Positions 5,552 through 47,700 of a DNA stretch of 48,296 bases are shown one piece after another. This DNA comes from Candidatus Asbonarchaeum danakilense (GTDB taxonomy: Archaea > Nanohalarchaeota > Nanosalinia > Nanosalinales > Nanoanaerosalinaceae). Position 1 is the stretch's first letter. Each line of letters starts with the position of its first letter. Location of the stretch: assembly GCA_034190465.1 (NCBI GenBank), contig JAXINV010000034.1, positions 1 through 48,296 of the forward strand, given 5' to 3'. A program made the translations under genes and the position numbers. The notes beneath the pieces are model-generated. The model was not told the DNA's origin. It made no database searches and saw only the letters and a program-made list of their open reading frames with translations.

Positions 5552-6028
5552 ATGTACGTGGAGGAAGAGGTCTCGAGGAAGACGTCGACGGTCGACGTGC
5601 AGGACTGGGAGCAGGCGTACAGCGAGGTCAAGAACATCCTCGAGAACCGGTTCTTCTTCCACAGGGTGGAGGAGGAGAAGTTCCGCCACCACCAGGAGAA
5701 GGGTATCATCGTCTCGAAGCTGAACTGTTACCGCGAGGTCGATGACTATACGACGATCGAGATCACGATCGTGATGACGATCGAGCAGGAGGCGCAGGAC
5801 GCTGCGCAGGCCCACATCACGCTCGATTCGAAGGGCGAGGTCGTGACACGGTATCCGGAGCGGACACGGTTCCAGCGTTCTGTGGTCTACTTTGCGCTCC
5901 GTTCGCTGTGGGACAAACTGGTGTATGGCTGGGCCCGTGGCAAGTGGAAGGACGAGGCACAGCAGCTGCAGATTGATGTCCATTCGGAGATCCGCGGGTT
6001 CCTGCAGTCGGTGGAGACGAGGCGGTAA
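5552..6028 (+). CDS. Hypothetical protein, paralogue 1 of a three-gene family cluster
   Basis: TATA-like TTATTTTAA at 5521-5529 consistent with a leaderless start; shares motifs with the next two ORFs. Confidence 0.8.
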   Translation: MYVEEEVSRKTSTVDVQDWEQAYSEVKNILENRFFFHRVEEEKFRHHQEKGIIVSKLNCYREVDDYTTIEITIVMTIEQEAQDAAQAHITLDSKGEVVTRYPERTRFQRSVVYFALRSLWDKLVYGWARGKWKDEAQQLQIDVHSEIRGFLQSVETRR

Positions 6029-6031
6029 TCC

Positions 6032-6589
6032 GTGGGGGAGAAGACTGAGGTCGTCCAGCGTGAGGACGTGGTCTACGGCAAGGATCTGGACAGTATGATG
6101 GAGTACTACCGGGGCATCCAGCAGACACTGGTGGACCTGGACTTCGATGAGATTGATGAGGAGCGGTCGGAGCACTGGGAGAACTTGCCGTTCAAGCAGA
6201 CGATCTATGCGGACATGTGGAAGGATCCGTTCACGAAGATACAGATCAAGATCAAGGCCCGTGTCAAGACGCCGCGCCGCGACCGACGGACGTCAGACGA
6301 CCTGTACAAGGGGATCTTCTTCATCTCGGGCTATGTGGTCCGTGAACGGTACGGGCACTGGGAGTACTTCGAGGAGAACTCCTGGTTCAAGCGTTCTGCG
6401 ATCTATAAAGGATTCCAGAGGATCTTGCGCAGTTTCCTGTTCCGGAAGGAGTTCAAAAAATATAAGGAGGAAGCGGAAGAACTTACCATCGAGGTCACGT
6501 CCCGCATCCGGGAGTTCGAGGGATCGATCCCGGCGATCGGCAAGAGCAAGCGGGAGTGGTTCGAGCCGGACTACCGGGAGAGGCGATAA
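6032..6589 (+). CDS. Hypothetical protein, paralogue 2
   Basis: GTG start 3 nt after the previous stop; EEAEELTIEV...IREF; C-terminal IGKSKREWFEP. Confidence 0.8.
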   Translation: MGEKTEVVQREDVVYGKDLDSMMEYYRGIQQTLVDLDFDEIDEERSEHWENLPFKQTIYADMWKDPFTKIQIKIKARVKTPRRDRRTSDDLYKGIFFISGYVVRERYGHWEYFEENSWFKRSAIYKGFQRILRSFLFRKEFKKYKEEAEELTIEVTSRIREFEGSIPAIGKSKREWFEPDYRERR

Positions 6590-6591
6590 CG

Positions 6592-7137
6592 ATGACGATC
6601 ACTGTCAGCAGAGAGGTTGCCGAGGCGGAAGACTGGTACCAGGCTCACGGCGTCGTGGAGCTGTACCGTAAGATGAAGAAGATGCTGGAGCAGGACATGA
6701 ACTTTGATGATGTCCAGGAGACGTTCTTTGCCCAGAACATGGACAACGGCAAGCTGACGACGAATATCTGGGCGACACGCGAGCTCGGCAGTCACGGCAT
6801 CGCTGACAGCGGTGCCAGCACCCATATGATTTTCGAGGTCGTGTATTTCTCTCGGACACCGATCAACACGACGGACAACGGCTACTTCGGCACGATGGAA
6901 CTGGACGTGACAACGAAGCTGAAGGTGGAGATGCCGGGCCAGGACCGTTGGGTAGACTCGATGCTTCGCAGGGCCTGGTTCAATGCGATCTACCGGCGCC
7001 AGTTCCGGTACTGGGTGGAGTACGCGGAGGAGGAGACGATCCGCTACATCAACATGGTCAGGGAGTTCCTAGACATGGAGCCGACGGTCGGCAAGTCGCG
7101 CCGCCTCCACTTCGAGCCGCTTGTCCACGCTATCTGA
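6592..7137 (+). CDS. Hypothetical protein, paralogue 3
   Basis: ATG 2 nt after the previous stop; EYAEEETIRY...VREFL; C-terminal VGKSRRLHFEP. Confidence 0.8.
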   Translation: MTITVSREVAEAEDWYQAHGVVELYRKMKKMLEQDMNFDDVQETFFAQNMDNGKLTTNIWATRELGSHGIADSGASTHMIFEVVYFSRTPINTTDNGYFGTMELDVTTKLKVEMPGQDRWVDSMLRRAWFNAIYRRQFRYWVEYAEEETIRYINMVREFLDMEPTVGKSRRLHFEPLVHAI

Positions 7138-7170
7138 CGCTGCGGCCTGTTTGCTGCACCGGCTCCGGCA

Positions 7171-7180
7171 GATATAAAAA
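7171..7180 (+). promoter_or_regulatory. TATA box
   Basis: GATATAAAAA about 21-30 nt upstream of 7201. Confidence 0.6.
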
Positions 7181-7200
7181 CGTGTCAACCTTTCTTTCAC

Positions 7201-7367
7201 GTGGAACCGGCGCGGTGCAACTGCCGCGTCTTCCCGAGGTAGCTGCCGTTGAACGCTCCTAGCGGGGCGGAGGCCGCCCGCCCAGGTCAGCAGGCCGATT
7301 GCACGTGAACAGCGTAAGCAGGATGAACGTCTGTGTTACAGGCGGGCGATATCTACCTCATTTCACA
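7201..7367 (+). ncRNA. Candidate structured RNA (ncRNA or long structured 5' leader)
   Basis: Stems 7201-7206/7361-7366, 7209-7215/7224-7230, 7236-7242/7353-7359, 7275-7282/7341-7348, 7254-7259/7264-7269; possible pseudoknot 7215-7220/7299-7304; K-turn-like TGA...GATGA at 7303-7330. Confidence 0.55.
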
Positions 7368-7389
7368 TTCACGGAGGATCAAGCTTCAG

Positions 7390-7632
7390 ATGTCACAGCT
7401 TTACATCAAGGTCGAAACGGAGCAGGACACATTCAGCGTCGACACCGATGCCACGTACCCGCGTATCGCTCTGGAAGCACCGGCGTCGCAGGGGAAGGCC
7501 AACGCGGAGCTGACGCAGCGGCTCGGTCAGCGGCTTGGGGAGGATGTTGCGATCGTCTCAGGCCATAAGTCACGACGCAAGAAGATACAGGTCGACCTTC
7601 CCAAGGAAGAGGTACTACAGCGGCTGGACTGA
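7390..7632 (+). CDS. DUF167/YggU family protein
   Basis: APASQGKANAEL...IVSGHKSRRK motif; GGAGG at 7373-7377 supports the ATG at 7390. Confidence 0.85.
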   Translation: MSQLYIKVETEQDTFSVDTDATYPRIALEAPASQGKANAELTQRLGQRLGEDVAIVSGHKSRRKKIQVDLPKEEVLQRLD

Positions 7633-7673
7633 CGTTTTCTGAAGCTTGGGCCTCCGTTCAACGGTGATCAATC

Positions 7674-8837
7674 ATGAGTAAATTAGCTCAAGCTTCATCC
7701 AAATACGTCATCAAGGCGAACATGACTGCAAACGGAGTCGTAGAGAAACCGGATGTCGTCGGCGCCATCTTCGGCCAGACAGAAGGACTGCTCGGCCCGG
7801 ACCTGGATCTGCGGGAGCTGCAGATGACCGGCAGGGTCGGCAGGATCGATGTCTCCGTCCGGTCGGAGAACGGCTCGTCGGAGGCGGAGATCGAGATCCC
7901 GAGCTCGCTGGATGCGACGGAGACAGCGCTGATAGCGGCTGCACTGGAGACGATCGACCGCGTCGGACCCTGCACGGCGGACATCGAGGTCGAGTCGGTG
8001 GAGGACGTCAGGTTCTCGAAGCGGGATTACATCATCGACCGTGCAAAGGAACTGCTGGACGAGATGCGTGACGAAGTGCCGGAGTCGCAGGAGATCTCGA
8101 AGGAGATTAAGGATGAGGTGCGGACGTCCGAGGTCACGAGCTACAAAGGTCTGCCTGCTGGCCCAGACGTCGAGAGTTCGGAGGATATCGTCGTCTGTGA
8201 AGGACGGGCCGACGTCGTGAACCTGTTGAAGCACGGCGTGAAGAACGTCATCGCGATCGGCGGCACGTCGATTCCGGAGGAGGTCAAGGAGCTGTCACGT
8301 GAGAAGGTCGTGACGCTGTTCCTGGACGGTGACCGCGGCGGCGACCTGATCCGGAAGGAGATGGACCAGACTGTCGACTTCGACTACGTCGCCCGGGCTC
8401 CGGATGGTAAGGAGGTCGAGGAGTTGACGAAAAAAGAGGTCTTCAAGGCGCTGCGGGATAAGGTCGCGGAGGAGCAGCTTGATGTAGCCGAAGAGGCCGG
8501 TGAGGAGACGGAGGAGGATCTTTCCGATGAGGGGGCGGATGACCCTGATCTGGATGATCGTGTCCGGACGGCGTTCAAGCAGACGATGACCAGCTTGGTC
8601 GGCACCCGCGCGGTCTACTTCCTGGACGATGAACTCCAGAACCTGGGGAAGGCGCCGCTGGATGAGATCGACTCATCGCTGCAGGATATCGATGAGGTGT
8701 ATGCGATCCTGTTCGACGGTGAGCTGGGCCGGGAGGTCGTCCGGGCGGCGGAACGTCACGGAGCTGAGTATCTGGTCGGGATGTCGGGCAGCGCTTCAAG
8801 CGATGACCTCCAGTGTCTGACTAAGAAGCAGCTTTAA
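7674..8837 (+). CDS. dnaG: Archaeal DnaG-type primase / exosome-associated TOPRIM protein
   Basis: KYVI...GVVEKPDVVGAIFGQTEGLLG..LDLRELQ; CEGRADV; FLDGDRGG. Confidence 0.95.
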   Translation: MSKLAQASSKYVIKANMTANGVVEKPDVVGAIFGQTEGLLGPDLDLRELQMTGRVGRIDVSVRSENGSSEAEIEIPSSLDATETALIAAALETIDRVGPCTADIEVESVEDVRFSKRDYIIDRAKELLDEMRDEVPESQEISKEIKDEVRTSEVTSYKGLPAGPDVESSEDIVVCEGRADVVNLLKHGVKNVIAIGGTSIPEEVKELSREKVVTLFLDGDRGGDLIRKEMDQTVDFDYVARAPDGKEVEELTKKEVFKALRDKVAEEQLDVAEEAGEETEEDLSDEGADDPDLDDRVRTAFKQTMTSLVGTRAVYFLDDELQNLGKAPLDEIDSSLQDIDEVYAILFDGELGREVVRAAERHGAEYLVGMSGSASSDDLQCLTKKQL

Positions 8838-44717: not shown

Positions 44718-47700
44718 TCCCAGTCGTCCTTGGTCGGGCAGTCCGGGTCGATGCACATGTAGTACGGTTTCTTGCCCTTCCTGATGACCTTGATACGGGG
44801 CTTGCCGCATTCGTCGCAGGCGTTCTTCAGCCCCTTGATCTTGCCGCTGCCGGGCAGCGGGTAGCTGTTCTCGCAGTCGGGATAGTTCGAGCAGCCGACG
44901 AACCTGCCGTTGTTGGTCTTGATGATGCGGAGCGTGCCGTCGTCGCATTCCTGGCACGGGCCGAGCTGCCGCTCCTTCTCCCGACGCTTGTCGATCGCCT
45001 CGACCAGCTGCTCGCCGATGTCGTTCTCGTTGTTTTTGAACGTCTCCAGGATGTCGGTTAGCGTCTCTTTGGCGTTGTCGAGGACGTCCTCACGCGTTTT
45101 GTCCCCGGCACGGATCGCATCCATCTGTTTCTCGAACGCGCGGGTCAGCTCGGGTGACAGGATCTCGGGGCAGTGCTCCTCCAGCGCCTCGACGACCGCC
45201 ATGCCGATGTCGGTGACCTTGATGGATTTCTCGTCGATGTAGTTCCGGTCGTACAGGTTCTCGACGATGTTGGCTCGGGTCGCCTTGGTGCCGAGGTCGT
45301 TCTTCTCCAGCTCGGAGATGAGGGAGCTCTGCGTGTATCTGTTTGGCGGCTTGGTCTGCTTGTCCTCCTTCCGCATCTGTTCGACGTCGAGCTTGGCGCC
45401 CTTCTTCAGGTCAGGCAGCTCGATGTTCTCCGGCTCCATGTAGGGTTCGTACAGGTCGTACCAGTTGCGCTCCAGGGTCCGCTTGCCCTTGGCCTCGAAG
45501 ACCTCGTCGTTGGAATTGAGGGTGATGGTCAGGCTCTCGCGTCGCGCCGGTTCGCCGAACGTGGCGAGGAACCGCTTGACGACCAGGTCGTAGATCTTCC
45601 GCTCCTGCTTGGACAGGTTGCCGGGCGCGTTCCCGGTCGGGTGGATCGCGGGGTGTGCCTCGTCCTTCTTCTTGCCCTGCCGCGGATAGATGTCGTCCTT
45701 CGCCAGGACGGTCCCGGCCTTGTCCTCGTACTTGTCCTGCTTCTTGAGCTGGGACAGGATGGAGCCGTAGCCGATCTTCTTCGGCAGTTTCTGGGAGCTG
45801 GTCCGCGGGTAGGAGATGAGGCTGGACTCGTACAGGTTCTGCGCCAGCTGCTGGGTCTTTTTCGGTGAGATGTTGAACTTGCTGTACGCCTCGTTCTGCA
45901 GGTCGGTGAGGTTGAACGGTGCCGGCGGGTTGTGGTTGTACTCTCTCCGGTCGACGTCGACGACGGCCGCTTTCCCGTCCTGGCAGAGTTCGACGACCCT
46001 GTCGGCCTCGTCCTCGTCCCAGAACCGTTCCTCGACGTGCTGTGCCTCCAGTCCGCCGGCGTGCAGGTAGACTTCCCAGTAGTCCTCGGGGTCGAACGCC
46101 CGGATCTCCCGCTCGCGGTCGGCGACGATCTTCAGGGCAGGGCCCTGGACCCGGCCGGTGGACAGGCTCTTGTACCGGTCCTGTGACTTGACGGCGATCA
46201 TGAGCGCTCTGGACAGGTTGATGCCGTAGTACCAGTCCATGACGTGCCGCGTCATGCCGGCCTCGGTCTGCGCCCGGTCGAAGTCGTTGAGGTCGTCGAA
46301 CGCCTCGCGGAGGTCGGAGTTGGTCAATGTGGAGAACTTCATACGCTTGATCCGGTCCTCGTCGCCGTTGCACGCCAGCTTGATGGCGGTGTAGCCGATG
46401 ACTGAGTTGTGGCTGATGATCCCGTTGCTGTGGGCGAAGTTCCGCGTCTTTGTCTGGACGTCGTAGAGGTGTTCGCTCTCTGGTTCCTGGCGTTCGATGG
46501 ACTGTACCTCAAGAAAGGTGATATCCCCGCTGGCGAGGGGGGCGAGCTCTTCGTCCTGCCAAGTCTGAACGTTGGTCATAGAGGTGGTCTTCGTACCCTT
46601 CCTGAGGTTCTGTTCTGCTTCTGCCGACAGTTCCTGTCGCTGTGCCAGGCATGCAGGGAGCTTATCCATGCGTCTCCGGTGCTGTGCTTTTTTGGCATCT
46701 ATCTCCGGCAGTTCTTCTGCGACACCGAGCCGTGAGGCGATCGTTTCAACATCATGACGTCTACCGAGTGTGAGGTTGTGCATCTCACGGTCGCTGTGGT
46801 TCCACTCTTGGAACGAGGGGTTGATGCCGTCTGTCTGCAGGAGCAGGAACAGGTCATTGAGCAGTTCACGGTTCTTGCTACCTGCCGAGGCGACGGCGCG
46901 GTCGTCGTTCGTGTCGATGAAGATTGATCCGTCGCCGTCCCAGTAGCCGGTCAACAGACCGTTCTTGAATGTCTTGGGGGCCGAGAGGATCCAGGAGGGA
47001 AGCCGCTTGCTGCCGGAGTCATCGCCGAGTTCAAGTGCCCTGAAAAGCATCCTGAGTATCTTTGACTTCGTCCCCACCTCGATGCAGTTGCTGTCGCCGT
47101 AGCTCCTCTCGACAGCCCTTTTCCTGAACTTTCCTTCTGTTCCGATATCAAGGAGGAACTCCTGGATCTCCTCTGCGAGGCCATGTTCTTCTGGCCCGAG
47201 GTAGAACCCGATGAAGCCGCCTGTGTCGATGCAGCCCTCTGCGAGGTACAGGCCGATGATCTTCCCGAGCTGTCTGTCAAGCACGAGCTCTGCCGGAAGG
47301 GAGGTCGAACCCCGGGGACTTGAGATGGTCATCTCGCTCCGGTCAACACCGAGGTAATCCTCCAGCTGGAGGAAGACGTCTTTCGGCATCCTATCATGGT
47401 GGCGGTAGTTGAGGCACTGTTTCCGCGTCCTGTCGACGTGCTCCGCCATCTCGGCCGGCATGATGTCCATCTCATCCTTGAACCCGTGGACGTAGATGTC
47501 GTCCAGGAGCTCGATGAGATCCAGGCGATCGGTGGTTTCGCTGTCCGGGAGGGCGTTGCTGGCGGGGATGTAATCGCCTTCCTCCAGTTCGTCTGCGGTC
47601 CTGGTCTCGAGCCCGTTCTCGGTGGCGACGAGCATCGGGTGGTTGGGGCTGACGGTTGTCTGTCTTCCGTGTTCGGTGGTTATGGTGAAGACACTCTCGT

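Follow-up and report, generated by a model that had tools for sequence, protein, structure and literature searches.

A candidate box H/ACA guide RNA for helix 69 of 23S rRNA, encoded upstream of DUF167-dnaG in nanohaloarchaea

In the genome of Candidatus Asbonarchaeum danakilense, the gap between three tandem paralogous open reading frames (ORFs) and a DUF167-dnaG gene pair appears to hold a structured RNA, and the question raised by this locus is what kind of RNA it is and on what it acts. The stretch of DNA analyzed here (the window) comprises 48,296 nucleotides (nt) of contig JAXINV010000034.1 in assembly GCA_034190465.1. A previous sequence-only reading of the window had noted kink-turn (K-turn)-like motifs in the gap, and had proposed either an independent ribonucleoprotein (RNP) RNA, possibly working with the upstream trio, or a cis-regulatory leader of the dnaG operon. 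The comparison with related genomes reported below makes it likely that positions 7275–7351 of the forward strand encode a pseudouridylation guide of the box H/ACA type, directed at helix 69 of 23S rRNA. This RNA would be the functional counterpart, and perhaps a homologue, of stem-loop 2 (SL2) of Haloferax sR-h45 and of motif 3 of Pyrococcus Pab40. As a guide it is an ordinary kind of RNA, yet one that is uncatalogued for nanohaloarchaea and outside the families of Rfam.

With respect to class, the core hairpin combines a lower stem (P1), a two-stranded pocket, an upper stem (P2), a K-turn, an apical stem-loop and an ANA box (Table 1), the defining H/ACA features applied here being those given in excerpts of a study of Haloferax (PMC7075261). 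The ANA box varies among the 40 copies that were aligned, with AAA in 22, AUA in 10, ACA in 4 and AGA in 2. In the first 10 aligned copies, the GA on the 5′ side of the K-turn does not vary, and the 3′ strand reads [AG]UGA in 36 of the 40. The distal G:A pair of the K-turn lies 8 nt (7291–7298) and 9 nt (7325–7333) from the base of P2, which is within one of the stated range; the corresponding distances in Haloferax SL1, according to the same excerpts, are 8 and 10 nt (PMC7075261). Specifically with regard to spacing, 14 nt extend from the first target-pairing base (G7335) to the last base of P1 (G7348), a value shared by 38 of the 40 copies, with 13 and 15 nt in the other two. The target uridine thereby occupies the canonical n+15 site; as excerpted, the rule for H/ACA RNAs is a distance of n+15 (±1) from target U to ACA box (PMC7075261).

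The minimum free energy (MFE) fold of 7195–7370 recovers all of the stems considered here, including the terminal stem, the 5′ hairpin, the enclosing stem, the K-turn-like hairpin and the long 3′ hairpin. The folding energy of this segment is unexceptional (z = −1.66, with 12 of 200 shuffles as stable; z = −0.66 for the opposite strand), and it is therefore the comparison with related genomes that carries the case. When 41 relatives were searched at the DNA level, the 3′ hairpin, and nothing else of the RNA, was recovered in several families. Across 10 aligned copies, 92.4% of the alignment cells are paired, as opposed to 31–42% when the pairing is slid, and compensatory changes are seen at 11 of the 17 pairs. 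A covariance model built from these 10 copies was then run on 70 genomes of the order, a set that also served as the phylum-level sample, and found exactly one copy in 57 of them, with 25 of the 28 high-quality genomes and 30 of the 32 genera represented. In the resulting 40-copy alignment, which was fitted to the covariance model and to that extent favours the structure, 95.6% of cells are paired versus 33–44% when slid, 16 of 17 pairs are compensatory, and none of 500 shuffles reaches the observed values. The covariation check suggested by the sequence-only reading, once run, thus showed a 3′ hairpin that is kept and covaries phylum-wide.

The hairpin is also specific to this locus and this group of archaea to the degree that pattern searches can tell. 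A strict H/ACA descriptor, applied to both strands of the whole 1.2-Mb assembly, matched two places, one of which is the locus described here. The other lies on another contig at about 45739–45826; as it is enclosed in an open frame of 249 codons and shows no complementarity to rRNA, we consider it a false positive. No second intergenic H/ACA motif was found by this descriptor in the whole genome, and a fuzzy pattern for a second guide, corresponding to the domain-V site of Haloferax SL1, gave 179 unspecific matches, none of them convincing. When 185,579 prokaryotic species genomes (one per species) were scanned with a pattern, 31 matches were obtained. Of these, 25 are in records whose titles name Nanohaloarchaea, Nanohalarchaeota, Nanohalobium or Asbonarchaeaceae, or in archaeal metagenome-assembled genomes (MAGs); the other 6 are in bacteria, close to a chance expectation of ~7 that is a hand estimate rather than a computed value.

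A comparison with Rfam, likewise suggested by the sequence-only reading, gave no match in the whole window at gathering thresholds and a pointer to the class under permissive conditions. At E ≤ 10 over 6900–7700, the only family to align was the H/ACA small RNA (sRNA) HgcG/Pab40 (RF00064; 19.5 bits, E = 0.0034), and the alignment is good only through the last (3′) hairpin of the model. Among eight relatives searched at E ≤ 1, two match the same part of RF00064 (23.1 and 18.8 bits), which in each case is their only Rfam match.

In terms of the target, the best site across the small-subunit and large-subunit (LSU) rRNAs of a same-genus relative lies at a U of the helix-69 loop, with 10 Watson–Crick pairs and a weighted score of 25. 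Helix-69 GUAAC pairs with 7335–7339 and UGACC with 7285–7289, leaving UA unpaired. The U in question is equivalent to Haloferax U1940, which we take to be position 1915 of E. coli. Within the UAUG tetranucleotide, the second U and also the G can be paired by the pocket, and a single pseudouridine is therefore predicted, at the first U. In dinucleotide shuffles, 31 of 1000 reach a score of 25 and 16 of 1000 reach 10 Watson–Crick pairs, which is of modest significance. A 16S site near position 90 was also considered and was dropped on account of two central mismatches.

The two arms of this pairing measure 5+6 in 19 of the 40 copies, 5+7 in 6, 6+6 in 3, 6+7 in 1 and 5+5 in 6 (the window included), and the predicted pairing amounts to 8–13 base pairs (bp) in 39 of the 40, where a bipartite target match of an H/ACA guide calls for 8 bp or more with "UN" left unpaired. 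The pocket ends proximal to P1 are variable, and in other lineages they lengthen the pairing to the same helix-69 sequence. This sequence is identical in 18 of the 19 relatives for which the LSU piece was found, and the near-invariance of GGUCAG and UGUUACA in the pocket is what would be expected if these strands read an invariant RNA. Published guides lead to the same place: SL2 of Haloferax sR-h45 guides pseudouridines 1940 and 1942 in helix-69 UAUG, as excerpts of PMC7075261 describe, and motif 3 of Pab40 is the guide for the conserved pseudouridine of stem-loop 69 in the 23S rRNA of Pyrococcus abyssi, as excerpts of PMC2377435 describe. These are two independent lines pointing to one loop.

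Table 1. Features of the guide RNA locus and its surroundings (positions of the window)
Feature	Position	Strand	Basis and remarks
H/ACA lower stem P1, 8 bp	7275–7282 with 7341–7348	+	7 of 8 pairs compensatory; 96.8% of cells pair (40 copies)
Pocket 5′ strand CAGGUCAG, 8 nt	7283–7290	+	GGUCAG almost invariant in 40 copies; GGUCA 7285–7289 predicted to pair with UGACC of helix 69
Upper stem P2	7291–7295 with 7329–7333	+	All 4 modelled pairs covary
K-turn in P2 arm	GA 7297–7298 opposite GAU-GA 7322–7326	+	Three-base bulge plus GA; sequence level only
Apical stem-loop	7299–7321	+	Sequence, fold
Pocket 3′ strand UGUUACA, 7 nt	7334–7340	+	Almost invariant in 40 copies; GUUAC 7335–7339 predicted to pair with GUAAC of helix 69
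ANA box (AUA)	7349–7351	+	Immediately 3′ of P1; ANA in 38 of 40 copies
TATA-like box ATATAAAA	7172–7179	+	Sequence; TATA-like box at same place in close relatives
Conserved 5′ segment TTTCACGTGGA	7195–7205	+	Identical in 3 long-form genomes; invariance precludes a covariation test
Possible terminal stem	GUGGA 7201–7205 with UUCAC 7368–7372, or with UUUCAC 7361–7366	+	Sequence, fold
5′ hairpin, 8 bp, 6-nt loop	7209–7230	+	MFE fold; lineage-specific
Enclosing stem P0, 7 bp	GAGGUAG 7236–7242 with CUACCUC 7353–7359	+	Compensatory changes in relatives
Second K-turn-like hairpin (GCC-GUU-GA...GA-GGC), 30 nt	7245–7274	+	Sequence, fold
Gap between third paralogous ORF (stop 7137) and DUF167 ORF	252 nt	+	Sequence
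GGAGG before DUF167 ORF	7373–7377	+	Sequence
DUF167 (YggU family) ORF	7390–7632	+	ATG at 7390, not 7391; 38 nt after ANA box; Pfam PF02594, 44 bits
Archaeal DnaG-type Toprim protein gene, downstream	7674–8837	+	Toprim domains; syntenic in most loci

A separate observation concerns the 23S genes of two of the genomes (G020 and G063), in which the LSU match is interrupted ~17 nt to the 3′ side of the helix-69 loop; in G020 the insertion measures ~300 nt. The interruption looks like an rRNA intron close to the predicted target site of the guide.

Several findings weigh against the assignment of this RNA as a helix-69 guide. The RF00064 scores (19.5 bits here and at most 23.1 in relatives) are far under the 77-bit gathering threshold, so that the RNA is of the same kind as that family without being a member of it. 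The ANA box is followed by one nucleotide and then by helix P0, an arrangement that is unusual for H/ACA RNAs. A search of the window's own assembly found no rRNA genes; the 16S and 23S of a same-genus genome were therefore scanned, and the target is read in that relative. The guide–target pairing in the window is short (5+5), and it is shorter in some copies (5+4 in 2 and 4+4 in 2) in which helix 69 is unchanged. The target statistic moreover depends on the scoring, as 776 of 2000 shuffles reach a 10-bp site when G–U is counted as a full pair, a non-significant result; this test was replaced by the weighted and Watson–Crick-only tests given above. One genome with an altered helix-69 stem has a weak guide-like hairpin that is uncompensated (5+1), a case that is negative or uninformative, the genome being a MAG with 7% contamination. 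In terms of proteins, Gar1 (Pfam PF04410) has no match here or anywhere among the 70 genomes, whereas the same model matches three of four archaeal control genomes; either Gar1 is too divergent for detection here, or the H/ACA RNP works without it. Finally, a sister genus is without the guide RNA in all four of its genomes (85–91% complete), and yet it has kept Cbf5 and an identical helix 69. No relocated guide was found in these four genomes by the covariance model, and the pocket pattern gave 17 matches there versus 13 in a backward control.

The other proteins of an H/ACA RNP are encoded in the genome, with matches to the Cbf5 equivalog (377 bits against a cut-off of 242, with DKCLD, TruB_N and PUA domains), Nop10 (67 bits) and L7Ae (99 bits). 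The co-occurrence of guide and Cbf5 is uninformative, because Cbf5 is near-universal (above the cut-off in 64 of the 70 genomes). An RluA/RluD-family pseudouridine synthase (PF00849) was found in none of the 70 genomes, the guide-less genus included, and helix-69 modification, if present in the phylum, is therefore probably achieved by an RNA-guided route.

With these findings in hand, alternative explanations of the RNA can be weighed. One is that the hairpin is a guide for something else, such as the runner-up LSU position, a tRNA or an mRNA, the helix-69 match being coincidental. The pairing arms are indeed short in the window, the runner-up LSU site scores 22 against 25, and the target scan covered the two rRNAs. 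Nonetheless, we regard this as quite improbable, as helix 69 is the top-scoring site, the lineage-specific extensions of the pocket increase pairing to it, its loop is the one served both by Haloferax SL2 and by the closest RNA in Rfam, and the target U sits at n+15. The partnership with the upstream trio that the sequence-only reading had suggested, under which the RNA would be the K-turn RNA of another kind of RNP, is highly unlikely, and nothing beyond synteny was found for it. The trio (5552–7137, forward strand; 158, 185 and 181 amino acids) belongs to a family that is kept upstream of the guide across the phylum: a same-strand paralogue precedes the RNA in 28 of 30 loci, mostly 36–148 nt away, and the family is without a known domain, as neither Pfam nor NCBIfam gave a match. 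In very small genomes, however, conserved gene order is weak evidence, and in two loci the paralogue lies 514–799 nt from the RNA. An AlphaFold model of the family (predicted local distance difference test score of 80) gave weak START/Bet v 1-like fold matches only (template modelling score ≤ 0.32), with no known RNA-binding fold, and a profile search of Protein Data Bank sequences returned nothing below E = 0.09. The RNA is, moreover, fully explained as an H/ACA guide.

The relationship to the downstream genes requires a closer distinction, between an RNA that merely controls DUF167-dnaG and a guide that is also part of its leader. A leader acting purely in cis, for example in response to L7Ae or DnaG and with no guide function, is very unlikely, even though the RNA is positioned directly upstream of DUF167-dnaG and K-turns are known binding sites of L7Ae, a protein that regulates some mRNAs via K-turns in their leaders. 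The most conserved nucleotides are the pocket strands and the ANA box, at fixed spacing, with nothing comparable near the start codon, and the pocket strands match rRNA helix 69. The synteny check that had been suggested for this locus also speaks against a leader of this type. The RNA typically lies between the paralogue gene and DUF167-dnaG, but it occurs with no dnaG within 1.5 kb in five loci of one family, and with dnaG 71–90 nt away but without DUF167 in two loci. Conversely, the operon persists without the RNA, the paralogue–DUF167 spacer of the guide-less genus being only 34–36 nt long and AT-rich, with dnaG kept, in three of three loci. Since all three synteny links (to dnaG, to DUF167 and to the adjacent paralogue) break somewhere, the RNA is best described as a gene in its own right and not as a control region of the dnaG operon.

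This leaves the reading in which a working guide is at the same time an obligatory 5′ leader of the DUF167(-dnaG) mRNA, with RNP assembly or cleavage after the ANA box setting the level or the 5′ end of the mRNA. Such a role would extend the guide assignment rather than exclude it, and we put it forward as a tentative possibility that we would not favour at present. In 20 of 28 loci, the ANA box is followed at a distance of 5–50 nt by a DUF167-like start (within 15 nt in five, the closest at 5 nt). Runs of at least four T between the ANA box and DUF167 occur in only 14 of 29 loci, and runs of at least five in 7 of 29; the longest in this window is three, and none of at least four is seen in the window or in its two closest relatives. 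The close DUF167 starts and the scarcity of T-runs make co-transcription likely in many lineages, and no second TATA-like box is visible in 7352–7390. Arguing the other way, the guide-less genus retains DUF167-dnaG behind its own AT-rich spacer, and the operon is to that extent independent of the RNA; one family has an oligo-T run after the ANA box, as would befit a separate sRNA gene; and in the five loci mentioned above the RNA has no nearby dnaG. A still broader scenario is an unlikely one: a phylum-wide H/ACA system reduced to one helix-69 guide, with Gar1 undetectable and the guide built into the DUF167-dnaG 5′ leader, in which guide maturation would be mechanically coupled to DUF167/DnaG expression and DUF167 might be an accessory factor of the Gar1-less RNP.

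Returning to the RNA as a guide, the part of the transcript 5′ of the core hairpin is lineage-specific. The long form is limited to the genus of the window and the neighbouring genus (two or three close genomes). Its 5′ hairpin differs in sequence in the same-genus relative, where it still forms a hairpin, and is missing in the next genus. Helix P0 was compared by eye in the three long-form sequences; it reads GGGCAGC/GCUGCCC and GGGACGG/CCGUCCU in the two relatives, and in all three it follows directly after AUAU. The K-turn-like hairpin at 7245–7274 is near-identical in the same-genus relative; the next genus has a shorter hairpin in its place, and other families have none. Its bulged strand is on the 5′ side, an orientation opposite to that of the H/ACA K-turn and typical of box C/D K-turns. 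Box C/D sRNAs have a C box of consensus RUGAUGA and a D box of consensus CUGA, with a guide of ~10–12 nt beside D/D′. Assignment of 7245–7274 as a box C/D sRNA was rejected, as GUUGAA and CGGA stand in place of the boxes, with only a 6-bp stem and a 4-nt loop between them. With low confidence, we take the 5′ half to be most likely a lineage-specific accessory scaffold or protective domain.

With respect to transcription, the TATA box at 7172 is the probable promoter of the RNA, from which we infer a start at about 7201–7203. In other families, TTTAAA or TATAAA occurs 27–37 nt before the hairpin, in 11 of 29 loci by a simple pattern. A scan for bacterial promoters and terminators found nothing in a setting, that of archaea, to which the method is unsuited. 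As there is no terminator downstream, the RNA would likely share its primary transcript with DUF167-dnaG; co-transcription is plausible, and the RNA may be physically part of the DUF167 leader.

These comparisons also settle most of what the sequence-only reading had described at the level of elements. All of those it listed are present, within 1–2 bases of where it had placed them. The TATA-like box at 7172–7179 is as described, and the paired ends (GTGGAA 7201–7206 with TTTCAC 7361–7366), the 7-bp stem (P0, GAGGTAG with CTACCTC) and the 8-bp stem (CGCCCGCC 7275–7282 with GGCGGGCG 7341–7348, now P1) are all reproduced in the MFE fold. Both tandem-GA motifs exist, the first within 7245–7274 and the second within 7297–7326 rather than at 7303–7330. 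The GC-GUAA-GC cap drawn on the second was not borne out, since covariation favours a 7-nt loop closed by ACG/CGU and a bulged AA. The complementarity between the 5′ hairpin loop GTGCAA (7215–7220) and TTGCAC (7299–7304) does exist in the window; however, it is absent in the same-genus relative, which has a different loop, and it is therefore probably due to chance. As for the identity of the RNA, a structured RNA that carries a K-turn is an L7Ae-type RNP RNA, and the proposal of an independent RNP RNA with its own promoter was thus right in kind, although the H/ACA class had gone unrecognized. The alternative proposal of a purely cis-regulatory dnaG leader is contradicted by the loci that have the RNA and no adjacent dnaG or DUF167, and by the operon without the RNA.

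In terms of mechanism, we envisage that L7Ae would bind the K-turn of the core hairpin, and that Cbf5–Nop10 would bind P1 and the ANA box. Nascent 23S rRNA would then pair with both pocket strands, and isomerization would take place at the U left unpaired, which corresponds to Haloferax U1940. In this genus, the guide would be embedded in a longer RNA of ~165 nt, running from ~7201 to ~7366–7372.

If correct, the assignment gives a previously unannotated, phylum-wide intergenic element a concrete identity and a predicted target, and the 40 aligned copies offer a covariance-model seed for a guide family outside the reach of Rfam. It would also mean that genomes of ~1 Mb without an RluD-type enzyme still keep a predicted RNA-guided pseudouridylation of the helix-69 loop, one of the best-conserved places of modification in the ribosome. 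These results leave the general picture of H/ACA guide function as it was, and only the undetected Gar1, the guide-less genus with Cbf5 and the tight DUF167 junction go beyond routine annotation. Within literature pairing nanohaloarchaea with pseudouridine, as judged by titles and the opening of abstracts, no description of this RNA was found.

One of the closest known systems is sR-h45 of Haloferax volcanii, a likeness that rests on described features and target, not on sequence alignment. As portrayed in excerpts of PMC7075261, its SL2 consists, like the RNA described here, of one H/ACA stem-loop in which a K-turn is combined with an ACA/ANA box; its target is the UAUG of helix 69 (Haloferax 1940–1943), the same tetranucleotide as predicted here, and its guiding is Cbf5-dependent. 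The two differ in that sR-h45 is a double-hairpin RNA of ~200 nt with a 56-nt linker, the 5′ hairpin of which guides site 2605, whereas a single H/ACA motif is present here. They also differ in that SL2 leaves UAUG unpaired and makes two pseudouridines, whereas one is predicted here, in the typical "UN" mode (the Haloferax details again from excerpts of PMC7075261).

Among sRNAs of Pyrococcus, motif 3 of Pab40 (also Pf7 or HgcG; RF00064) is the 3′ hairpin through which this family, alone in Rfam, aligns here. The RF00064 consensus shares the GUGUUAC 3′ pocket strand, the GAUGA strand of the K-turn, a G+C-rich lower stem of 8–9 bp and an ACA tail. Pab40, in contrast, has three H/ACA motifs in ~276 model positions, of which only the last is matched here, and the 5′ pocket strand is GGGUUAGC in the RF00064 model versus CAGGUCAGC here. 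For the extra K-turn-type motif of the long form, a precedent is found in Pyrococcus Pab21, described in excerpts of PMC2377435 as an H/ACA sRNA with an attached box C/D motif, forms of which with and without the C/D motif both occur in vivo. Unlike in Pab21, the extra element here (7245–7274) is a 30-nt K-turn-like hairpin without a recognizable C/D guide, and it precedes the H/ACA motif on the 5′ side, within an enclosing stem; it occurs in the closest genus only, with a shorter substitute in the next.

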